Shown here piece by piece: positions 1,483-9,892 of a stretch of DNA of 9,892 bases. Source of the stretch: a virus (lineage: Duplodnaviria; Heunggongvirae; Uroviricota; Caudoviricetes); IMG/VR virus record IMGVR_UViG_2579779077_000004; one strand, 5' to 3'. The notes below the pieces were generated by a model. That model did not search any database. It saw only the letters and a list, made by a program, of their open reading frames with translations, and was not told where the DNA came from. Every line of letters starts with the position of its first letter. Positions within the stretch are counted from its first letter, which is position 1. Both the position numbers and the translations under genes were made by a program.

Positions 1483-1677
1483 AAGTGAGGAGCAAAAGCG
1501 AGGGGGGTAGAAAGAGGGCCAAAATTAGCCTGCTCTCCCTCACTTTTCGACCTGTATACATCCTCAAAAGTGAGGGGTAAAAAAATACTTATGAAACACA
1601 CACATAGAAAAACCAAAAATCCCAACTGCGACGAAGTGAGACGCTTGAAAAAGTGAGGCGAAAAAGTGAGAGGTTGC
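1482..1677. repeat. Iteron array, putative origin of replication
   Basis: Direct copies of AAAGTGAG(G/A) at 1482-1490, 1566-1576, 1649-1658 and 1661-1673; degenerate copies at 1494-1503 (AAAGCGAGG), 1511-1519 (AAAGAGGGC) and 1633-1641 (GAAGTGAGA); one inverted copy at 1537-1547 (CCCTCACTTTT). An AT-rich stretch sits between them at 1578-1620. The array lies directly 3' of the rep gene. Confidence 0.6.
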
Positions 1678-2986: not shown

Positions 2987-3033
2987 TGTTCGTGGTTGTT
3001 CCACGTTGTTCACTGAGCGGATCGGCATATTTT
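2987..3033 (+). promoter_or_regulatory. Candidate promoter/operator for the head operon: three phased TTGTTC repeats and a sigma70-like -35/-10
   Basis: TTGTTC at 2987-2992, 2997-3002 and 3006-3011, spaced about one helical turn apart. The last one (-35-like) is followed after 16 nt by TATTTT at 3028-3033 (-10-like). A 5-bp inverted repeat CGTGG/CCACG lies at 2991-3005. Confidence 0.3.
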
Positions 3034-3087
3034 ACCCGAACTGAATCATGATTATTCTCGCCTGTGGTGCCAGGACGCTGGGGCCAC

Positions 3088-3226: not shown

Positions 3227-4384
3227 ATGCCGAGAATAATCGAATTACGCCAGCAGAAAACCGCCATTAAAAATCAGATGCGCGACATGCTGGAGAACGC
3301 TGAAAAAGAAAACCGCAGTCTTAACGATGCTGAGGGCGCAAAATTTGACGAATTACGCGCTAAAGCTGAATCCCTCGATAAAGACATTTCCCGCCTTGAA
3401 GCCATTGCAGACGAAGAGCGCAGCAAGCCAGGTAAAAGCAGTCAGACCACTGACCCCGCAGAACTACGAAACTACATTCTGACGGGTGAAACCCGCGCAT
3501 TAAGTACAGGCGTTCCCGCTGATGGTGGTTATACCGTTATCCCCGAACTGAACACCGAAATCATGCGAATGCTGGCGGATGAATCCACCATGCGCCGCAT
3601 CTGTACCGTGAAGAAAATCAGCAGCAACGAGTTTAAGCAGCTTGTTTCCGCTGGCGGTGCGACCGTTAACCACGGTGAAGAGGGTAAGGCACGCGAACAG
3701 ACCAGCACCCCGCAGATTAACGAGGTGAGCATTAAGCTGTATCCGGTCTATGCGTACCCGCGCACCACACAGGAAATCGTGGATTTTTCCGATGTGGACA
3801 TCCTTTCATGGCTGACGGGTGAGATTGGCGACACCTTCACGGAAACCGAAGAAAGCGATCTGGTTGTGGGCGACGGTGACAAAAAAGCAAAAGGTTTTTT
3901 ATCCGTACCCCGTGCAGAGAAGAACGACAAAGAGCGTGATTTTGGTACGTTGCAGGTAATTAAACCTTCCGAATCTCTGGCGTGGACATCTGCGGACCCG
4001 CTGATCGACCTGAAATTTGCATTACGTAAAAAATACCGCAAAAACGCGGTCTGGGTGGTTAACTCCACGACGGCGGCAAAACTTCAGAAGGTGAAGAACG
4101 CGAACGGTGATTACATCTGGCGCGACCGTTTACAGGCGGGTGATCCTGATACGTTGCTGGGCCTTCCGGTCGAATATCTGGAGTTTATGCCTGATAACGT
4201 TATTGCCCTGGGTGACTTCAAACGCGGTTACTACATTGTTGATCACGAAACAGGTGTTCGCACCAGACCGGACAACCTCACAGAGCCGGGCTTCATCAAA
4301 ATTTTCACGCAGAAATATTTAGGCGGTGGCGTGGTGGATTCGAACGCGATCAAGATTCTGGAACTGCCACAGGACGACGATTAA
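3227..4384 (+). CDS. Major capsid protein, HK97 fold, with N-terminal coiled-coil delta (scaffolding) domain
   Basis: 385 aa from the ATG at 3227 (the ORF track begins at an upstream TTG at 3182). The N-terminus has a charged coiled-coil heptad pattern (IIELRQQKTAIKNQMRDMLENAEKENRSL…DELRAKAESLDKDISRLEAI), followed by a mature domain with HK97-MCP-like motifs (GGYTVIPEL…, …LLGLPVEY…). Confidence 0.9.
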   Translation: MPRIIELRQQKTAIKNQMRDMLENAEKENRSLNDAEGAKFDELRAKAESLDKDISRLEAIADEERSKPGKSSQTTDPAELRNYILTGETRALSTGVPADGGYTVIPELNTEIMRMLADESTMRRICTVKKISSNEFKQLVSAGGATVNHGEEGKAREQTSTPQINEVSIKLYPVYAYPRTTQEIVDFSDVDILSWLTGEIGDTFTETEESDLVVGDGDKKAKGFLSVPRAEKNDKERDFGTLQVIKPSESLAWTSADPLIDLKFALRKKYRKNAVWVVNSTTAAKLQKVKNANGDYIWRDRLQAGDPDTLLGLPVEYLEFMPDNVIALGDFKRGYYIVDHETGVRTRPDNLTEPGFIKIFTQKYLGGGVVDSNAIKILELPQDDD

Positions 4385-4997: not shown

Positions 4998-6209
4998 ATG
5001 TGGCCTTTCAGAAGAAAAAAAGAGCAGCGCAGCATGACGCTTGATGAATTTATGGCGCTGGCTGGCACATCGAACACGGGGGCGGGTGAGTACGTATCAT
5101 CGGGGACAGCGGAATCACTGCCCGCCGTCATGAACGCCGTGACGGTCATTTCTGAGGCGGTGGCTACCATGCCGTGTTACCTGTACCTGGTACGCAATGA
5201 GAAGGGGAAGGAGGCCCGCGAGTGGCTTGATTCTCATCCGGTCGATCACATCCTCAACGAGCGCCCGAACGCGTGGCAGACTCCCTACCAGTTTAAGCGA
5301 ATGATGATCCGCCACTGCCTGTTAAACGGTAATGCTTATGCGGTGATTCAGTGGGGGCGTGATGGTTTTCCGGTGGCTTTACATCCTTACCCGCCGCAGT
5401 CGGTGAACGTGGAGCAGACAGGCGAACACAACTGGCGCTACTGCATCACTGACGCTTACACCGGAAACACCCGCAACTATTTACCGTGGGAGGTACTTCA
5501 CCTTCGTTACTCCACGGATGACGGCTTTATGGGGCGCTCACCTGTAACCATCTGCCGCGAATCGCTGGGGCTTGGGCTGGCCCAACAACGCCACGGCGCG
5601 AGCGTGATGCGTGATGGCATGATGGCGGCAGGGGTTATCACGTCAGGCGAATGGCTGGACGGCGTGAAGGGCAAACAGGCATTAGCCGCACTGGAACGCT
5701 ACAAAGGGGCCAGAAACGCCGGAAAAACGCCCATCCTTGAAGGGGGGATGAGCTATCAGCAGCTGGGCATGAGTAATCAGGATGCTGAATGGCTGGCCTC
5801 CCGTCGCTTCACCATTGAAGACATCGCCCGAATGTTCAACGTCTCGCCGATTTTTCTGCAGGAATACAGCAACAGCACCTACAGCAATTTCAGCGAGGCA
5901 AGCCGCGCATTTCTCACCATGACGATGCGCCCGTGGCTGGCGAACTTTGAGCAGCAGATAAAAAACGCCTTGCTGGTGGTCTCGCCTGTACCTGGTATCC
6001 GGTATCAGGTGGAGTTTGACAGCGCGGACCTGTTACGGGCCACACCTGGCGAACGCTTTGCCACCTATGAGCGCGGCATCAAATCCGGCGTAATGTGTCC
6101 GAACGAAGCCCGCGAACGTGAAGGACTGTCACCGCGTGATGGTGGTGATGAGTTCAGCCAGGCATGGAAACAGGAAGTAAAAATCAGCGAGGGAGAAAAA
6201 CCGGAATGA
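4998..6209 (+). CDS. Portal protein, HK97 family
   Basis: 403-aa ORF with GCGGGGG RBS upstream of the ATG at 4998. Size and sequence character fit HK97-type portals. It begins 2 nt after the protease stop. Confidence 0.88.
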   Translation: MWPFRRKKEQRSMTLDEFMALAGTSNTGAGEYVSSGTAESLPAVMNAVTVISEAVATMPCYLYLVRNEKGKEAREWLDSHPVDHILNERPNAWQTPYQFKRMMIRHCLLNGNAYAVIQWGRDGFPVALHPYPPQSVNVEQTGEHNWRYCITDAYTGNTRNYLPWEVLHLRYSTDDGFMGRSPVTICRESLGLGLAQQRHGASVMRDGMMAAGVITSGEWLDGVKGKQALAALERYKGARNAGKTPILEGGMSYQQLGMSNQDAEWLASRRFTIEDIARMFNVSPIFLQEYSNSTYSNFSEASRAFLTMTMRPWLANFEQQIKNALLVVSPVPGIRYQVEFDSADLLRATPGERFATYERGIKSGVMCPNEAREREGLSPRDGGDEFSQAWKQEVKISEGEKPE

Positions 6210-6544
6210 ACATAGGGCGACTGCGTGACAGGATAACGATTCAGACCCTGAAACAGACCAGGGATATAACCGGCGAAATACTCGAAACGTGGGAGGACGG
6301 TCACACACTCTGGGCAAGCGTGAACATGGTCAGCAGCAAGGAGGCCATTTCATCGGGTGCAGAGCTGGCGATTGGTACCGTAAGGATCTGGATACGGTAC
6401 CGGAAGGACATCAACGCCACCAGCCGGATAAAGGTCAGTACGGGGCCGCTGGCGGGGCGTGTACTGAATATCATCGGGCAGCCGCTGCCGGATGCCGCCA
6501 GGACACGCCTTGAAATTCTTTGTCGTGAGGGCGCGGAAAAATGA
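6206..6544 (+). CDS. Head closure / head-tail adaptor protein (phage head-tail joining family, SPP1 gp16-like)
   Basis: ATG at 6206 overlaps the portal stop (ATGA) with GGGAGA 8-13 nt upstream. The ORF-track start at 6164 lies inside the portal gene. About 112 aa (MNIGRLRDRITIQ…), the size and pattern of this family. Confidence 0.75.
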   Translation: MNIGRLRDRITIQTLKQTRDITGEILETWEDGHTLWASVNMVSSKEAISSGAELAIGTVRIWIRYRKDINATSRIKVSTGPLAGRVLNIIGQPLPDAARTRLEILCREGAEK

Positions 6545-6837
6545 CAGAAGAACTTATCACCCTGGAAGAAGTGAAACTCCATTGCCGCATCGATGGCGAC
6601 GAGGAAGACCAGTTAATCAGCGGATACATTGCCGCATCGCTTGAGGCGTGCCAGATACACATAGGCAGGCGCTTTGATGACGGGCTGGAGTTCACGCCAG
6701 CCATAAAGATTGGCTGCATGATGTTTATCGCTCACCTGTATGAGAATCGCCAGATTGTCGCGGATAACGCAAAAACACGCGTACCCATGACGATTGGCGC
6801 ACTCTGGACGGCTTACCGTGATGTGGGGGTGTACTGA
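6541..6837 (+). CDS. gp6-like head-tail connector protein
   Basis: N-terminus LITLEEVKLHCRIDGDEEDQLISGYI resembles HK97 gp6-type connectors (…LTLEEAKAHLRVD…). ATGA overlap with the upstream gene; 98 aa. Confidence 0.8.
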   Translation: MTEELITLEEVKLHCRIDGDEEDQLISGYIAASLEACQIHIGRRFDDGLEFTPAIKIGCMMFIAHLYENRQIVADNAKTRVPMTIGALWTAYRDVGVY

Positions 6838-7277
6838 TGCCGTGGCAACCATTAAGACGATGCACAGAACCAGGCTGTAACAGGCGCGTTAAATCCGGCA
6901 AGTGTGAGGAGCACAGGCGGGCGGCATGGCGTGCAGAGGATGCCAGACGAGGACACCGCCGCGCGCGTGGATATTCCAGACAGTGGGACAAATACCGCGC
7001 CATGTATCTGAGTAAAAACCCGTTATGCGTGCGATGCCTTGAGAAGGGGATATATACGCCCGCCGTGGTGGTGGATCACATTATCCCGATTAATGGCGGT
7101 GATGATGTTCTCTTCTGGCCCGAATGGAACCATCAACCATTGTGTCAGGCGTGTCATAACCAGAAAACGAAATGGCTTGATCCGGCAACAAAAAGCAAGC
7201 GTGCCGCAGGTGGATTTCGTGAAGAGGAAGAACGGGCCGCTAACCGCAATAACTGGATGTATGACGCTGATGAATGA
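6837..7277 (+). CDS. HNH endonuclease, phage packaging-associated
   Basis: Cys-rich N-terminus (CTEPGCNRRVKSGKCEEH) and an HNH motif (VVDHIIPINGGDD…WNHQPLCQACHNQKT). The start overlaps the previous stop by 1 nt (TGATG). It sits just upstream of terS, as in HK97-like cos phages. Confidence 0.85.
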   Translation: MPWQPLRRCTEPGCNRRVKSGKCEEHRRAAWRAEDARRGHRRARGYSRQWDKYRAMYLSKNPLCVRCLEKGIYTPAVVVDHIIPINGGDDVLFWPEWNHQPLCQACHNQKTKWLDPATKSKRAAGGFREEEERAANRNNWMYDADE

Positions 7278-7446
7278 GCGGGAACAAAACCGCCTTATCC
7301 GTGGACTTATAAGGCAGCGTGACACATGGAAGACACAGGAAACAGGGCATAAAGATAAAGCGTCAGGACGCGCAGAACGCATCACAGCGAAGCGATTAAC
7401 CGACCGTGACCGCGAGGTTATGGAATGTTTCCGCAATCGCTGGTGA
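7261..7446 (+). CDS. Possible small basic protein (about 61 aa)
   Basis: ATG at 7261 in the +1 frame relative to HNH, overlapping its last 17 nt (MTLMNEREQNRLIRGLIRQRD…NRW). RBS is weak and no family is recognised. It occupies the HNH-terS spacer. Confidence 0.22.
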   Translation: MTLMNEREQNRLIRGLIRQRDTWKTQETGHKDKASGRAERITAKRLTDRDREVMECFRNRW

Positions 7447-7565: not shown

Positions 7566-7922
7566 ATGGCAAGACCACCGAAAGCCCCCGCCTACCTGGA
7601 TGACATCGCCGTGAAGCAGTGGCGGGAAAAATCGCGGCAGCTTGCGGAACGGGGAGACCTGACTCCCGCCGACTGGAGCAATCTGGAACTGTATTGTGTC
7701 AACTACTCCATTTACCGGAAAGCCGTTGCAGACCTTGCGGCGCGCGGGTTCAGCATTGTTAACAGTCAGGGCGGCGAGAGCAGAAACCCCGCATTAAGCG
7801 CAAAATCCGACGCTGAAAGAGTGATGATAAAAATGGCCTCCTTGCTCGGTTTTGACCCGATAAGCCGCCGTAAAAATCCACCGGAAACAGAAGAAGAGGA
7901 CGAGCTTGACCGCCTGGAATAA
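7566..7922 (+). CDS. terS: Terminase small subunit, P27 family
   Basis: 118 aa with a P27-family-like pattern (…LTPADWSNLELYCVNYSIYRKA…NPALSA…MIKMASLLGFDPISRRK) and an acidic C-terminus. Lies between the HNH and TerL genes. Confidence 0.85.
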   Translation: MARPPKAPAYLDDIAVKQWREKSRQLAERGDLTPADWSNLELYCVNYSIYRKAVADLAARGFSIVNSQGGESRNPALSAKSDAERVMIKMASLLGFDPISRRKNPPETEEEDELDRLE

Positions 7923-9567
7923 GTACGCAGAAGACGTAAAAACGGGCAAAATTCCGGCCTGTAAACGGCTGAAACAGGCCGTTAAACGGTACTTTTCGGA
8001 CCTTAAAAACCCCCTTTATACGTTCGATCGTGAGGTCGTGGAGCGGTTTATTGCCTTTTCCAGGGTGTGCCCGCACGTAAAAGGGCCGATGCGTGGCAGA
8101 CCCATTGAGCTGGAGCCGTGGCAGCAGTTCGCCTTTGCGTGCATCCTCGGCTTTAAGGTTAAGGCCACCGGACGGCGCAAATACACGAGCGCATTTATCG
8201 AAGTGCCGCGCAAAAATGCGAAATCCACGACCGCCGCGATTCTGGCTAACTGGTTTCTGATTATGGAGAACGGGCAGCAGGATATTTACACCGCAGCAGT
8301 GAGCCGTGACCAGGCGCGGATCGTTTTTGATGATGCGCGTCAGATGTGCCTTTTATCCCGACCGTTACGCAGGCGGGTGAATATTCAGGCCCACAAGGTG
8401 ATGCACCCGAAAAGCAACAGCCTGTTAAAGCCGCTGGCAGCAAAAGCGGCAACCATCGAGGGCACAAACCCAAGCCTTTCCATCGTGGACGAATACCACC
8501 TACACCCCGATAACGGCGTTTATTCCGCGCTTGAGCTGGGGATGGGCGCACGTCCCGAAGGGCTGTTATTTGCCATTACCACATCGGGCAGTAACGTCGT
8601 TTCAGCCTGTAAACAGCACTATGATTATTGCTGCCAGATCCTGGACGGCGAAGAGGTCAACGATTCAATTTTTGTGCTGATTTACGAGCTGGACGACGAA
8701 AACGAGGTTGATGATCCGGGGATGTGGATAAAGGCTAACCCTAACATCGATGTTTCCGTGGATCGTGAAAAACTGGCCTCAACCATCCAGAAAGCGCGGG
8801 GTATTCCGTCGCAATGGGTGGAGATGATGACAAAGCGATTTAATATCTGGTGCCAGGGGGCTACCCCGTGGATGGGTAACGGCGCATGGGTTGAGTGTGC
8901 CGGAACGTTCATGGAGGAAGATTTACACGGGCAGGAGTGTTACGCGGGGCTGGACTTATCATCAACCAGCGATATTTCCAGCGTGTGCTATGCCTTTCCG
9001 GTCGGTAAAACCATTATGCTGATTTCCCGTCATTATCTGCCGGAGTTCCAGCTACAGAACCCCGCCAATAAAAACCGCGCTGTCTATCGCCAGTGGGCTA
9101 AAGCGGGCTGGATACGCACAACGCCAGGTGACTGCATTGATTACGACCGGATCAGAGATGACATCATGCAGGATGCGGAGAAATTTAATATCAGGCTGGT
9201 GGGCTTTGATACGTGGAACGCCACGCATCTCAGGACGCAATTACAGGGGGCTGGTTTTGAGGTGGAGCCGTTCCCGCAAACCTACCTCAGATTCAGTCCG
9301 GCGGCGAAATCGTTCGAAGTTTTTGTTAACCGCAGGGTGATTGTGCATCGTGGCGATCCGGTGTTGTCCTGGTCGATGAGTAACGTCGTGATGCAGAGTG
9401 ACGCGAACGCCAATATCAAGCCGAACAAGAAAAAATCACCGAACAAGATAGACCCGAGCGTAGCGGCGCTGATGGCGTTTGGTACATTCCAGGCAGAGCA
9501 TGAGGATTTTGCTTTTGATATAAGCGACAGCCACCGCCAGAAACTGGAAGAATTTAGCGGGGTGTAA
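7906..9567 (+). CDS. terL: Terminase large subunit (ATPase plus nuclease)
   Basis: 553 aa. N-terminus WNKYAEDVKTGKIPACKRLKQAVKRYFSDLKN is typical of Terminase_1-type TerL. The apparent start is TTG at 7906 with GAGGA 5 nt upstream, overlapping terS by 17 nt in the +1 frame; there is no in-frame ATG or GTG between the upstream stop and this TTG. Confidence 0.9.
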   Translation: MTAWNKYAEDVKTGKIPACKRLKQAVKRYFSDLKNPLYTFDREVVERFIAFSRVCPHVKGPMRGRPIELEPWQQFAFACILGFKVKATGRRKYTSAFIEVPRKNAKSTTAAILANWFLIMENGQQDIYTAAVSRDQARIVFDDARQMCLLSRPLRRRVNIQAHKVMHPKSNSLLKPLAAKAATIEGTNPSLSIVDEYHLHPDNGVYSALELGMGARPEGLLFAITTSGSNVVSACKQHYDYCCQILDGEEVNDSIFVLIYELDDENEVDDPGMWIKANPNIDVSVDREKLASTIQKARGIPSQWVEMMTKRFNIWCQGATPWMGNGAWVECAGTFMEEDLHGQECYAGLDLSSTSDISSVCYAFPVGKTIMLISRHYLPEFQLQNPANKNRAVYRQWAKAGWIRTTPGDCIDYDRIRDDIMQDAEKFNIRLVGFDTWNATHLRTQLQGAGFEVEPFPQTYLRFSPAAKSFEVFVNRRVIVHRGDPVLSWSMSNVVMQSDANANIKPNKKKSPNKIDPSVAALMAFGTFQAEHEDFAFDISDSHRQKLEEFSGV

Positions 9568-9580
9568 TGAGGTCAGCAGC

Positions 9581-9862
9581 ATGACAGAAGCCGAAATACT
9601 GCGATTAATCCGCCGCGTCTCTGGAATCAGCCAGCAGGCTGACGAACAGACCACGCAGCCGGACAGCGTGACAGCCGAAAATTATGCGCGTGTTGTTGCT
9701 GAGGTGATGCGCCGTGATGGTATCCAGCTTAATGATGCGGATATGCGCGACATACGGATCCGCGTTCTGGAAATGCTGGCCTACAATCGCCGCGTTGAAC
9801 TGTATCGGGAGAAGGAGAAAATCACGTACCACTGGAAGAAGCCGGAGCGGTTACGGCGGTAA
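9581..9862 (+). CDS. Hypothetical protein (93 aa) downstream of terL
   Basis: ATG at 9581 with GAGG about 10 nt upstream. Charged, probably alpha-helical protein (MTEAEILRLIRRVSG…); no family recognised. Confidence 0.5.
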   Translation: MTEAEILRLIRRVSGISQQADEQTTQPDSVTAENYARVVAEVMRRDGIQLNDADMRDIRIRVLEMLAYNRRVELYREKEKITYHWKKPERLRR

Positions 9863-9892
9863 CTCACTGAGATTAAAGCAAAGCGCGAAATT

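Follow-up and report, generated by a model that had tools for sequence, protein, structure and literature searches.

The 93-aa gene that follows terL in this viral sequence is conserved and closes the late (packaging) operon of enterobacterial phage-inducible chromosomal islands (PICIs), beside the attR/attP arm. It is an accessory gene, and it encodes neither a capsid nor a tail-docking component. A sequence-only reading of the window (the whole 9,892-nucleotide stretch analysed, IMG/VR record IMGVR_UViG_2579779077_000004) had described an unrecognisable, charged small protein encoded directly after terL by the last gene before the window ends. All of this is confirmed, and the gene proved to be conserved. 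Of the roles offered in that reading, namely head-completion or tail-attachment adaptor, helper-interference factor or accessory factor, only the last has held.

The window covers the late half of a capsid-forming PICI (cf-PICI) of the EcCIEDL933 type (O-island 51) at the roxA/phoQ site. Its gene order starts with a RepA-type helicase, three iterons, SSB and a PerC-like gene, continues through an HK97-type capsid, prohead protease, portal, head-completion protein, gp6-like connector and HNH, and ends with a 61-aa ORF, a P27-type TerS, TerL and the 93-aa gene. Pfam found all eight (8/8) of the capsid, prohead protease, portal, head-completion, connector, HNH, TerS and TerL genes, and their order is the published proteobacterial cf-PICI order (10.1101/2022.09.08.507074). 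The stretch from 9400 to 9892, comprising the 3' end of terL and the ORF, is 100% identical to Escherichia coli FHI_NMBU_10 and 99.6% identical to O157:H7 strains, including the O157 copy L002 (L numbers denote loci). The gene order of the window is matched throughout in both, with differences from FHI_NMBU_10 at some upstream positions such as the iterons.

In those genomes, this gene set forms the right half of a ~14.5-kb island with an integrase and an alpA-like gene. More specifically, the upstream part of the 100%-identical locus (L001) contains int, an HTH regulator, the RepA helicase and SSB, and direct repeats at 534-608 and 15018-15092 bound a ~14.5-kb element between roxA and phoQ. 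The element has the features expected of a cf-PICI: an integrase, an alpA-like regulator and a replication module, no tail or lysis genes, a length of 10-18 kb and att repeats. Inspection of the DNA beyond the window, proposed in the sequence-only reading, was carried out in these relatives and shows that the gene adjoins attR. The 93-aa gene is the final annotated gene in the O157 form of the island (L002), and one extra annotated 52-aa hypothetical gene lies between it and attR in L001.

EcCIEDL933 is transferred upon helper induction in small capsids of its own making, joined to helper tails; mutation of the packaging-module genes abolished transfer in all cases except 'hypothetical gene 1792', for which transfer was severely reduced (10.1101/2022.09.08.507074). 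The capsid is gene 1786 and the packaging module comprises nine genes; tail specificity of cf-PICIs is assigned to the adaptor and connector genes, and the regions flanking the packaging operon are variable and 'expected to encode immune systems' (10.1101/2025.02.11.637232). We considered the 93-aa ORF as gene 1792 and rejected it, because counting from 1786 puts 1792 between HNH and terS. By this count we infer that TerL is 1794 and the 93-aa ORF approximately 1795, outside the tested module, and that gene 1792 is probably the 61-aa ORF. The ~120-nt gap downstream of the 61-aa ORF is a candidate cos region. Two further identifications of the 93-aa ORF were rejected: the OI-51 regulator RgdR is ECs1581, in the early region (PMC3378721), and the 'UvrB-like' gene of EcCIMP1 sits between int and alpA.

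Two other sites were noted in the window. The three 17-nt iterons (AAAAGTGAGG-G-AAAA), spaced by 85 and 83 nt, the first of them at the extreme 3' end of the gene for the RepA-type helicase, compare with a chance expectation of 0.06 matches and are probably the replication origin of the island. The motif TTGTTCCACGTTGTT, found upstream of the capsid gene, returns in slightly degenerate form beside both att sites (L001 533-565 and 15017-15049) and may be a common regulator site or an integrase arm-type site.

Table. Features around the 93-aa ORF and elsewhere in the window.
Feature	Position	Strand	Remarks
93-aa ORF	9581..9862	+	ATG start; 13-nt gap after terL; sources include PMC1890555
Shine-Dalgarno GAGG	9570..9573	+	7 nt upstream of the ATG of the 93-aa ORF
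terL	7906..9567	+	cistron preceding the 93-aa ORF in the same late operon; stop codon 9565-9567
Codons 47-71 of the 93-aa ORF	9719..9793	+	best-conserved core, common to long and short forms
Codons 83-93, YHWKKPERLRR	9827..9859	+	near-invariant aromatic-basic C-terminal tail
ORF overlapping the 93-aa ORF	9605-9832	antisense	annotated c1506 in CFT073
Start of post-stop element	9863..9892	.	degenerate TTGAT-type box, then hairpin 5' arm and loop
Hairpin 5' arm AGCGCG	9882-9887		hairpin cut off by the window end
Portal	4998-6209		Pfam
Head-completion protein (PF05521)	6164-6544		Pfam
gp6-like connector (PF05135)	6541-6837		Pfam
61-aa ORF	7261-7446	+	phrog_3173; overlaps the HNH end, precedes terS
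Iterons, 17 nt	1481-1497, 1566-1582, 1649-1665	+	
Motif TTGTTCCACGTTGTT	2996-3010	+	upstream of the capsid gene

The ORF is a genuine protein-coding gene. It is more than a chance frame because it has a full-length profile match to phrog_1561 (E=1.5e-55, 1-93/93), stays open across copies and has a low pairwise dN/dS (0.19-0.5). Among 102 non-identical loci we found 77 distinct nucleotide versions of the ORF, 75 of them intact and in frame and coding for 63 distinct proteins; the frame is open in all 77 versions and intact in 101 of the 102 loci, and the Shine-Dalgarno motif is kept in 71 of the 77 distinct copies. Judged by these substitution patterns, the 93-aa protein is under purifying selection. 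Furthermore, because the last codons differ synonymously among versions (Leu TTA/TTG/CTG; Arg CGG/CGA/CGT), the C-terminal constraint acts at the level of the protein. Copies at every locus found are 86-94 aa long, or 62-63 aa in a short form described below, and this constancy rules out a fragment of a longer gene. The sequence-only reading had worried that the frame might not be conserved in relatives or might be part of a broken longer gene; the opposite was found in both respects. The sole locus of the 102 in which the stop codon of the ORF is lost is L026, where the ORF follows terL and a short CGGCGGTTA duplication lengthens the frame.

No sigma-70-like promoter was found upstream of the ORF in simple promoter scans, and terL and the ORF are therefore taken to be co-transcribed. 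The gap between them is 5-14 nt in 49 non-identical cf-PICI loci, and the distance to the preceding gene is 2-21 nt in many carrier loci.

The profile and structure searches suggested by the sequence-only reading returned phrog_1561 only. Pfam (to E=10), NCBIfam and PADLOC gave zero matches for the 93-aa protein, and the PHROGs search matched only function-unassigned families. A search of all PDB chains with phmmer and the family profile yielded nothing below E=0.26 and no terminase-like match, and no fold match was obtained for the protein model. In Pfam, the HTH_17, Phage_AlpA and Xis profiles did not match the protein; neither did the adaptor profiles PF05521 and PF05135, even at E<=10, and both of these match other ORFs of the window. 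Searching the literature for the accession, the PHROG number and the O157 locus tags gave comparative-genomics lists only.

The protein has a mass of 11.2 kDa, a pI of 9.5 (10.5 for the short form) and a net charge of +4 over its last 12 residues, and there is no cysteine in the long, short or Citrobacter forms. AlphaFold2, run on a 62-sequence alignment, produced an all-helical model with a pLDDT of 77 (87-95 over residues 31-70). The model has a helix at residues 3-14, a disordered linker at 17-28, a second helix at 32-45, a long third helix at 52-80 and an extended tail, with no wing; the core encoded by codons 47-71 corresponds to the loop and the start of helix 3. With low confidence, we take the product for a small basic three-helix accessory protein that may bind nucleic acid or a partner via its invariant tail.

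To place the family, we searched bacterial and phage genomes. The gene is carried by 1567 of 5426 complete E. coli genomes (29%), in 1515 of them near full length, often in several copies, up to six per genome, and at 77-100% nucleotide identity. Because a tblastn search of the 93-aa protein against 50,697 phage records gave zero matches compared with this frequency in E. coli, we conclude that the gene is confined to satellites. Clustering at 90% identity yields 965 protein clusters, and a search of 1.84 billion 50%-identity representatives yields only 37 clusters, many of which are fragments. A GTDB genome scan with exact peptides recovered just a Shigella copy and a chance match within a Bacillota alpha-glucosidase.

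The family comprises a long and a short form, together with a divergent 86-aa branch in Citrobacter. The short form (62-63 aa; 82 clusters) is found in Klebsiella, Enterobacter, Citrobacter, Pluralibacter, Phytobacter and some E. coli; it is without the N-terminal helix and the linker and retains the core, which is a helical hairpin, and the tail. G47, R59, W85, K87 and P88 are invariant in both forms, and L50, N51, D54, I58, L66, A67, R71, Y83, R92 and R93 are at least 90% conserved in both. The C-terminal motif Y-x-W-K/R-K-P-x-x-x-R-R is likewise kept across long and short forms.

The genomic context was surveyed in the 102 non-identical carrier loci. The gene follows a cf-PICI terL in 49 of them and unrelated, non-cf-PICI genes in the other 53, where the upstream gene is TerS/Rpp-like (25 loci), another hypothetical (15), DUF1441 (1), Citrobacter-type (1) or something else (11). 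The gene is thus tied neither to terL nor to capsid-forming islands, and it also terminates the late region of islands with lambda-type capsid/decoration/Rpp or DUF1441 packaging modules. Complete genomes place it as the final gene ahead of the right junction at roxA/phoQ, clpS, tRNA-Ile/mug and yejO, and the family spans at least seven integration sites. Four small annotated genes on either strand come after it in the ydgV island L008, and one small opposite-strand gene follows the family gene in the Citrobacter island L010. The short-form gene of Klebsiella/Enterobacter cf-PICIs at fis, hpt or mug is separated from terL by one or two other genes and closes the island in every case except L173. 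In L173, a gene for a 483-aa AAA_15/AAA_21 ATPase (phrog_3940; 9388-10839) separates the short-form gene from the mug junction, probably as defence cargo added beyond the conserved terminal gene.

Some of these Klebsiella/Enterobacter cf-PICIs carry a lambda gpI-like tail assembly gene directly after terL (L169 8027-8647 and L172 8378-8992; phrog_32, E<=1e-70), which is unexpected in elements said to borrow helper tails; a tail assembly protein gene is annotated in L006 as well.

Homology between island types starts within a few nucleotides of the ATG and stops at the stop codon or at most ~40 nt past it. Neither flank is shared in 30% of the pairs with near-identical ORFs. The ORF is divergent in 2% of the pairs with a common downstream flank versus 18% of those with a common upstream flank; its linkage is thus tighter on the att side than on the packaging side. 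These comparisons show that the gene moves between islands as a discrete cassette, regardless of packaging strategy, replicase and integration site.

Conversely, a TerL-anchored set was used to look for cf-PICIs without the gene. The set consists of 77 IMG/VR loci, neither independent nor de-replicated, with TerL at least 91% identical and a downstream stretch long enough for a call: the long form follows terL in 58 loci, L038 has the short form, L073 has a DUF3892 gene instead, and 17 loci, with a ~92%-identical TerL, have no such gene. The 17 loci are L043, L048, L052, L054, L056-L058, L060, L063, L066, L077, L079-L081, L083, L085 and L089. These have a different right end in common: terL is followed by ~520 nt of non-coding DNA with a doubled TTTGCGGGTTATTT motif, and in the 14 contigs that are long enough this DNA borders on the C-terminal nuclease portion of a split TerL gene (Pfam positions 64-283/286). 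The 17 gene-less cf-PICIs are islands inserted in a prophage terminase gene, which is the helper-embedded arrangement already described (10.1101/2022.07.18.500453).

EcCICFT073, the prototype lambda-cos PICI, occupies the same roxA/phoQ site as the O157 island, and its final gene c1505 (WP_000133413.1) is 91% identical to the 93-aa protein over 93 residues. EcCICFT073 and the O157 cf-PICI share an identical integrase (WP_000085269.1; L177 5931-7160 and L002 1-894), the alpA-like protein and the att site, and their late modules are entirely different, a clear case of module swapping between PICI classes. In EcCICFT073/Nissle-type islands (L009, L008 and L177), two inverted lambda-type cos sites flank the rpp-like gene; in L009 they are located at 3057-3068 (+) and 3924-3935 (-), and both align with the lambda left end. 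The second cos lies ~65-76 nt upstream of the ATG of the 93-aa gene in 39 of the 53 non-cf loci. We rejected an upstream cos as a general feature: the inverted lambda-type cos2 is present in classical islands and the arrangement is not general. The cos2 site has been reported as non-essential (PMC6739421).

Published constructs bear directly on c1505. By mapping the published primers onto CFT073, we found that the pBAD18 'c1505' clone contains the CFT073 copy of the 93-aa gene and that 'EcCICFT073 c1504-07::cat' deletes L177 16104-17001, which removes the whole gene, cos2 and the annotated c1504, c1506 and c1507. When clones c1499-c1507 were expressed singly, only c1503 (rppA) inhibited lambda plaques and pBAD18-c1505 did not (PMC6739421). 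The c1504-07::cat island was still mobilised by lambda and phi80 and served as the reference island in transfer assays, in a design without an isogenic gene-positive comparison and with titres given in figures only (PMC6739421). From these constructs it follows that c1505 is not a lambda inhibitor and is dispensable for induction, packaging, transfer and establishment in laboratory strains. With the gene absent from 17 cf-PICIs and the deleted island still mobilised, the accessory-factor option of the sequence-only reading is borne out.

The DNA downstream of the stop codon is also patterned. E. coli long-form islands have 48 distinct post-stop sequences, most of which follow one scheme: the stop codon, a TTGAT-type box, an A/T-rich spacer and a 5-10-bp hairpin. 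The commonest TTGAT-type box, TAACTGGTTGATA, is the reverse complement of the IHF consensus WATCAANNNNTTR. Hairpin stems differ between related loci yet remain complementary, and in E. coli long-form islands the hairpins score as minus-strand intrinsic terminators. Short-form islands have a canonical, strong plus-strand terminator ~20 nt past the stop, beyond which come a doubled CTGTATAAACAT and, ~150 nt away, the fis crossover core TTCATGCC (core sequence from 10.1101/2022.07.18.500453). Alternative right ends carry GTGAC repeats at ~10-11-nt spacing. We read the post-stop region, on these sequence patterns, as a putative terminator or insulator plus attP arm, and nothing in it pointed to a binding site for the 93-aa protein.

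Several repeats were observed in the same region. Units made of TAAC-NNG-TTGAT (the opposite-strand IHF consensus), an A/T-rich spacer, a hairpin with covarying stem and GCTGG are repeated two to four times over ~250 nt past the ORF (L001 14464-14700, L009 4283-4520 and other loci). L001 also has a 66-nt direct repeat of 89% identity (14456-14521 versus 14588-14653), the first copy of which corresponds to the window from 9855; it opens with the ORF's final 8 nt, stop codon included (GGCGGTAA), contains the post-stop hairpin and looks like a partial tandem duplication or a recombination scar at the 3' boundary of the ORF. An Rfam scan of the downstream region gave sub-threshold matches only, to the manA RNA (18 bits, gathering 55) and a 22-nt viral pseudoknot, both of which were treated as chance.

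Taken as a whole, the best explanation is a late-terminal satellite gene with a putative late nucleic-acid-binding role, a proposal we hold tentatively and rate somewhat short of an even chance. According to this proposal, the protein would be produced late, together with the packaging proteins, and would probably dimerise through its helical hairpin, while nucleic acid would be contacted by the arginine-rich first part of helix 3 and by the aromatic-basic tail. It would be likely to act at the att-proximal end, on DNA or late transcript of the satellite itself, and the step tuned could be the fate of the late transcript, read-through of attP or the handling of excised or packaged DNA. Such a function would be common to all these satellites, with transfer in laboratory strains proceeding without it. 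Among the possible actions, binding of nucleic acid at the att-proximal end by this late-made protein, be it to the late transcript or to excised DNA, is the one we favour, although taken by itself it is rather unlikely. Improbable, in turn, is a new kind of satellite late factor in which the tail of a dimeric hairpin protein binds the 3' hairpin of the late transcript or the attP-arm DNA and so links late transcription with what becomes of the excised satellite DNA, for instance by keeping that DNA from re-integrating or by controlling read-through into int-alpA. If true, this would be the sole late function common to capsid-forming and capsid-hijacking PICIs.

Two other functions have been considered at length. 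The protein might instead be a protein-binding modulator or counter-defence factor, the tail of which docks onto a host, helper-phage or rival-element protein (e.g. a nuclease, a defence system or a regulator) that is missing from, or of no relevance in, laboratory K-12 strains; we regard this as almost as likely as nucleic-acid binding, if on balance unlikely. Short conserved C-terminal peptides are typical docking motifs. Such a role would fit a gene that is dispensable for lambda and phi80 transfer from K-12 derivatives (PMC6739421) and yet under purifying selection, that occurs in 29% of E. coli genomes at up to six copies per genome, that lies past the packaging operon in a region regarded as an immunity-cargo hotspot (10.1101/2025.02.11.637232) and that in L173 adjoins the AAA_15/AAA_21 ATPase; however, PADLOC has no match, the gene is conserved between islands whereas typical defence cargo is variable, no partner is recognisable from sequence and, with no promoter of its own in simple scans, expression would come only late after induction. 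An accessory factor for integration or excision, acting at the adjacent attP arm to block re-integration or to modulate Int once late transcription crosses attP, has little probability. The att-proximal position in nearly all loci examined (~150-950 nt from the junction or first flanking gene), the tighter linkage to the att-side flank than to the packaging genes, the IHF-consensus boxes with GTGAC or doubled repeats downstream, and the absence of the gene from cf-PICIs with the prophage-late-gene integrase arrangement (10.1101/2022.07.18.500453) would all suit it. Nevertheless, ORFs at roxA/phoQ (L001) and yejO (L009) are 94% nucleotide-identical, no co-variation with integrase or att specificity is apparent across at least seven integration sites, AlpA is already the excisionase/regulator in these islands (PMC11773190), no HTH or Xis-like profile matches, and the gene-deleted island was still able to establish itself in recipients (PMC6739421).

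The remaining explanations fare worse. Interference with helper packaging in the manner of Ppi or Rpp would suit a small protein with its gene beside rpp or terminase genes, but pBAD18-c1505 left lambda plaques unreduced while c1503 (rppA) reduced them (PMC6739421), EcCIEDL933 shows no interference toward its helpers (10.1101/2022.09.08.507074) and the protein has no sequence similarity to any PDB chain; this option of the sequence-only reading is very unlikely. Even less credit can be given to its head-completion or tail-attachment adaptor of the satellite capsid, since 53 of the 102 loci have unrelated packaging modules, other genes intervene between terL and the short-form gene in Klebsiella/Enterobacter cf-PICIs and ~17 cf-PICI loci with a ~92%-identical TerL lack the gene; the portal, which had been expected after terL, lies upstream together with the head-completion and connector genes. 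That the ORF is non-functional, a chance frame or the shadow of the antisense ORF c1506, is a notion to which we attach almost no weight: the protein has no known domain and 67 of the 77 versions keep an antisense frame of at least 70 open codons, but dN/dS is 0.9-2.8 for the antisense frame compared with 0.2-0.36 for the plus frame, the antisense frame is interrupted in 10 of the 77 versions, and the synonymous tail codons and conserved Shine-Dalgarno motif belong to the plus frame.

PICIs and cf-PICIs are intensely studied as gene-transfer vehicles, and nearly all genes of their late modules have roles. This gene is the sole late-region gene found common to islands with wholly different packaging strategies, and it has so far been treated as disposable space for antibiotic markers. 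It is already catalogued as a hypothetical protein and a PHROG and has been cloned and deleted in passing; apparently undescribed are the family with its long and short forms, its use as a marker of the PICI right end and its absence from prophage-embedded cf-PICIs. The finding is a modest one: the element is of a known kind and the gene an accessory orphan. Should the gene act only in natural hosts, for instance in counter-defence, regulation or the handling of DNA, satellite biology may be under-reported by laboratory constructs that lack it; otherwise it is simply an orphan that has been conserved. Annotators can take the gene as a marker of the right end of enterobacterial PICIs and should give it no head or tail label.

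Among known systems, the closest positional analogy is with P2 Ogr and P4 Delta, small basic late-gene activators of the Cys4 zinc-finger type whose genes come last in the late region and adjoin attP and int; they are a model for a regulator encoded at the end of a late operon. The likeness is in position only: the 93-aa family has no cysteine and no sequence or fold similarity to them. The PF05521 and PF05135 proteins of cf-PICIs are similar in size and encoded in the same operon, but their profiles do not match the 93-aa protein and their genes occupy 6164-6837. Rpp of EcCICFT073 and Ppi of SaPI are, like the 93-aa protein, small, satellite-specific and encoded beside terminase-related genes; Rpp, however, has a TerS-like DNA-binding domain and blocks lambda, whereas the 93-aa family shows neither the similarity nor the activity (PMC6739421). 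RgdR (ECs1581), the 99-aa basic regulator, likewise belongs to this island, is close to the 93-aa protein in size and pI and lacks a known domain, but its gene lies in the early region between z1841 and z1842, and the complementing fragment z1835-z1843 excludes the 93-aa ORF (PMC3378721). The closest known relative is c1505 of EcCICFT073, itself uncharacterised, having been cloned and deleted without a described phenotype (PMC6739421). It differs from the 93-aa gene in following rppA and an inverted cos rather than terL, in an island without capsids of its own, and resembles it in being the final gene before attR at the same roxA/phoQ site.
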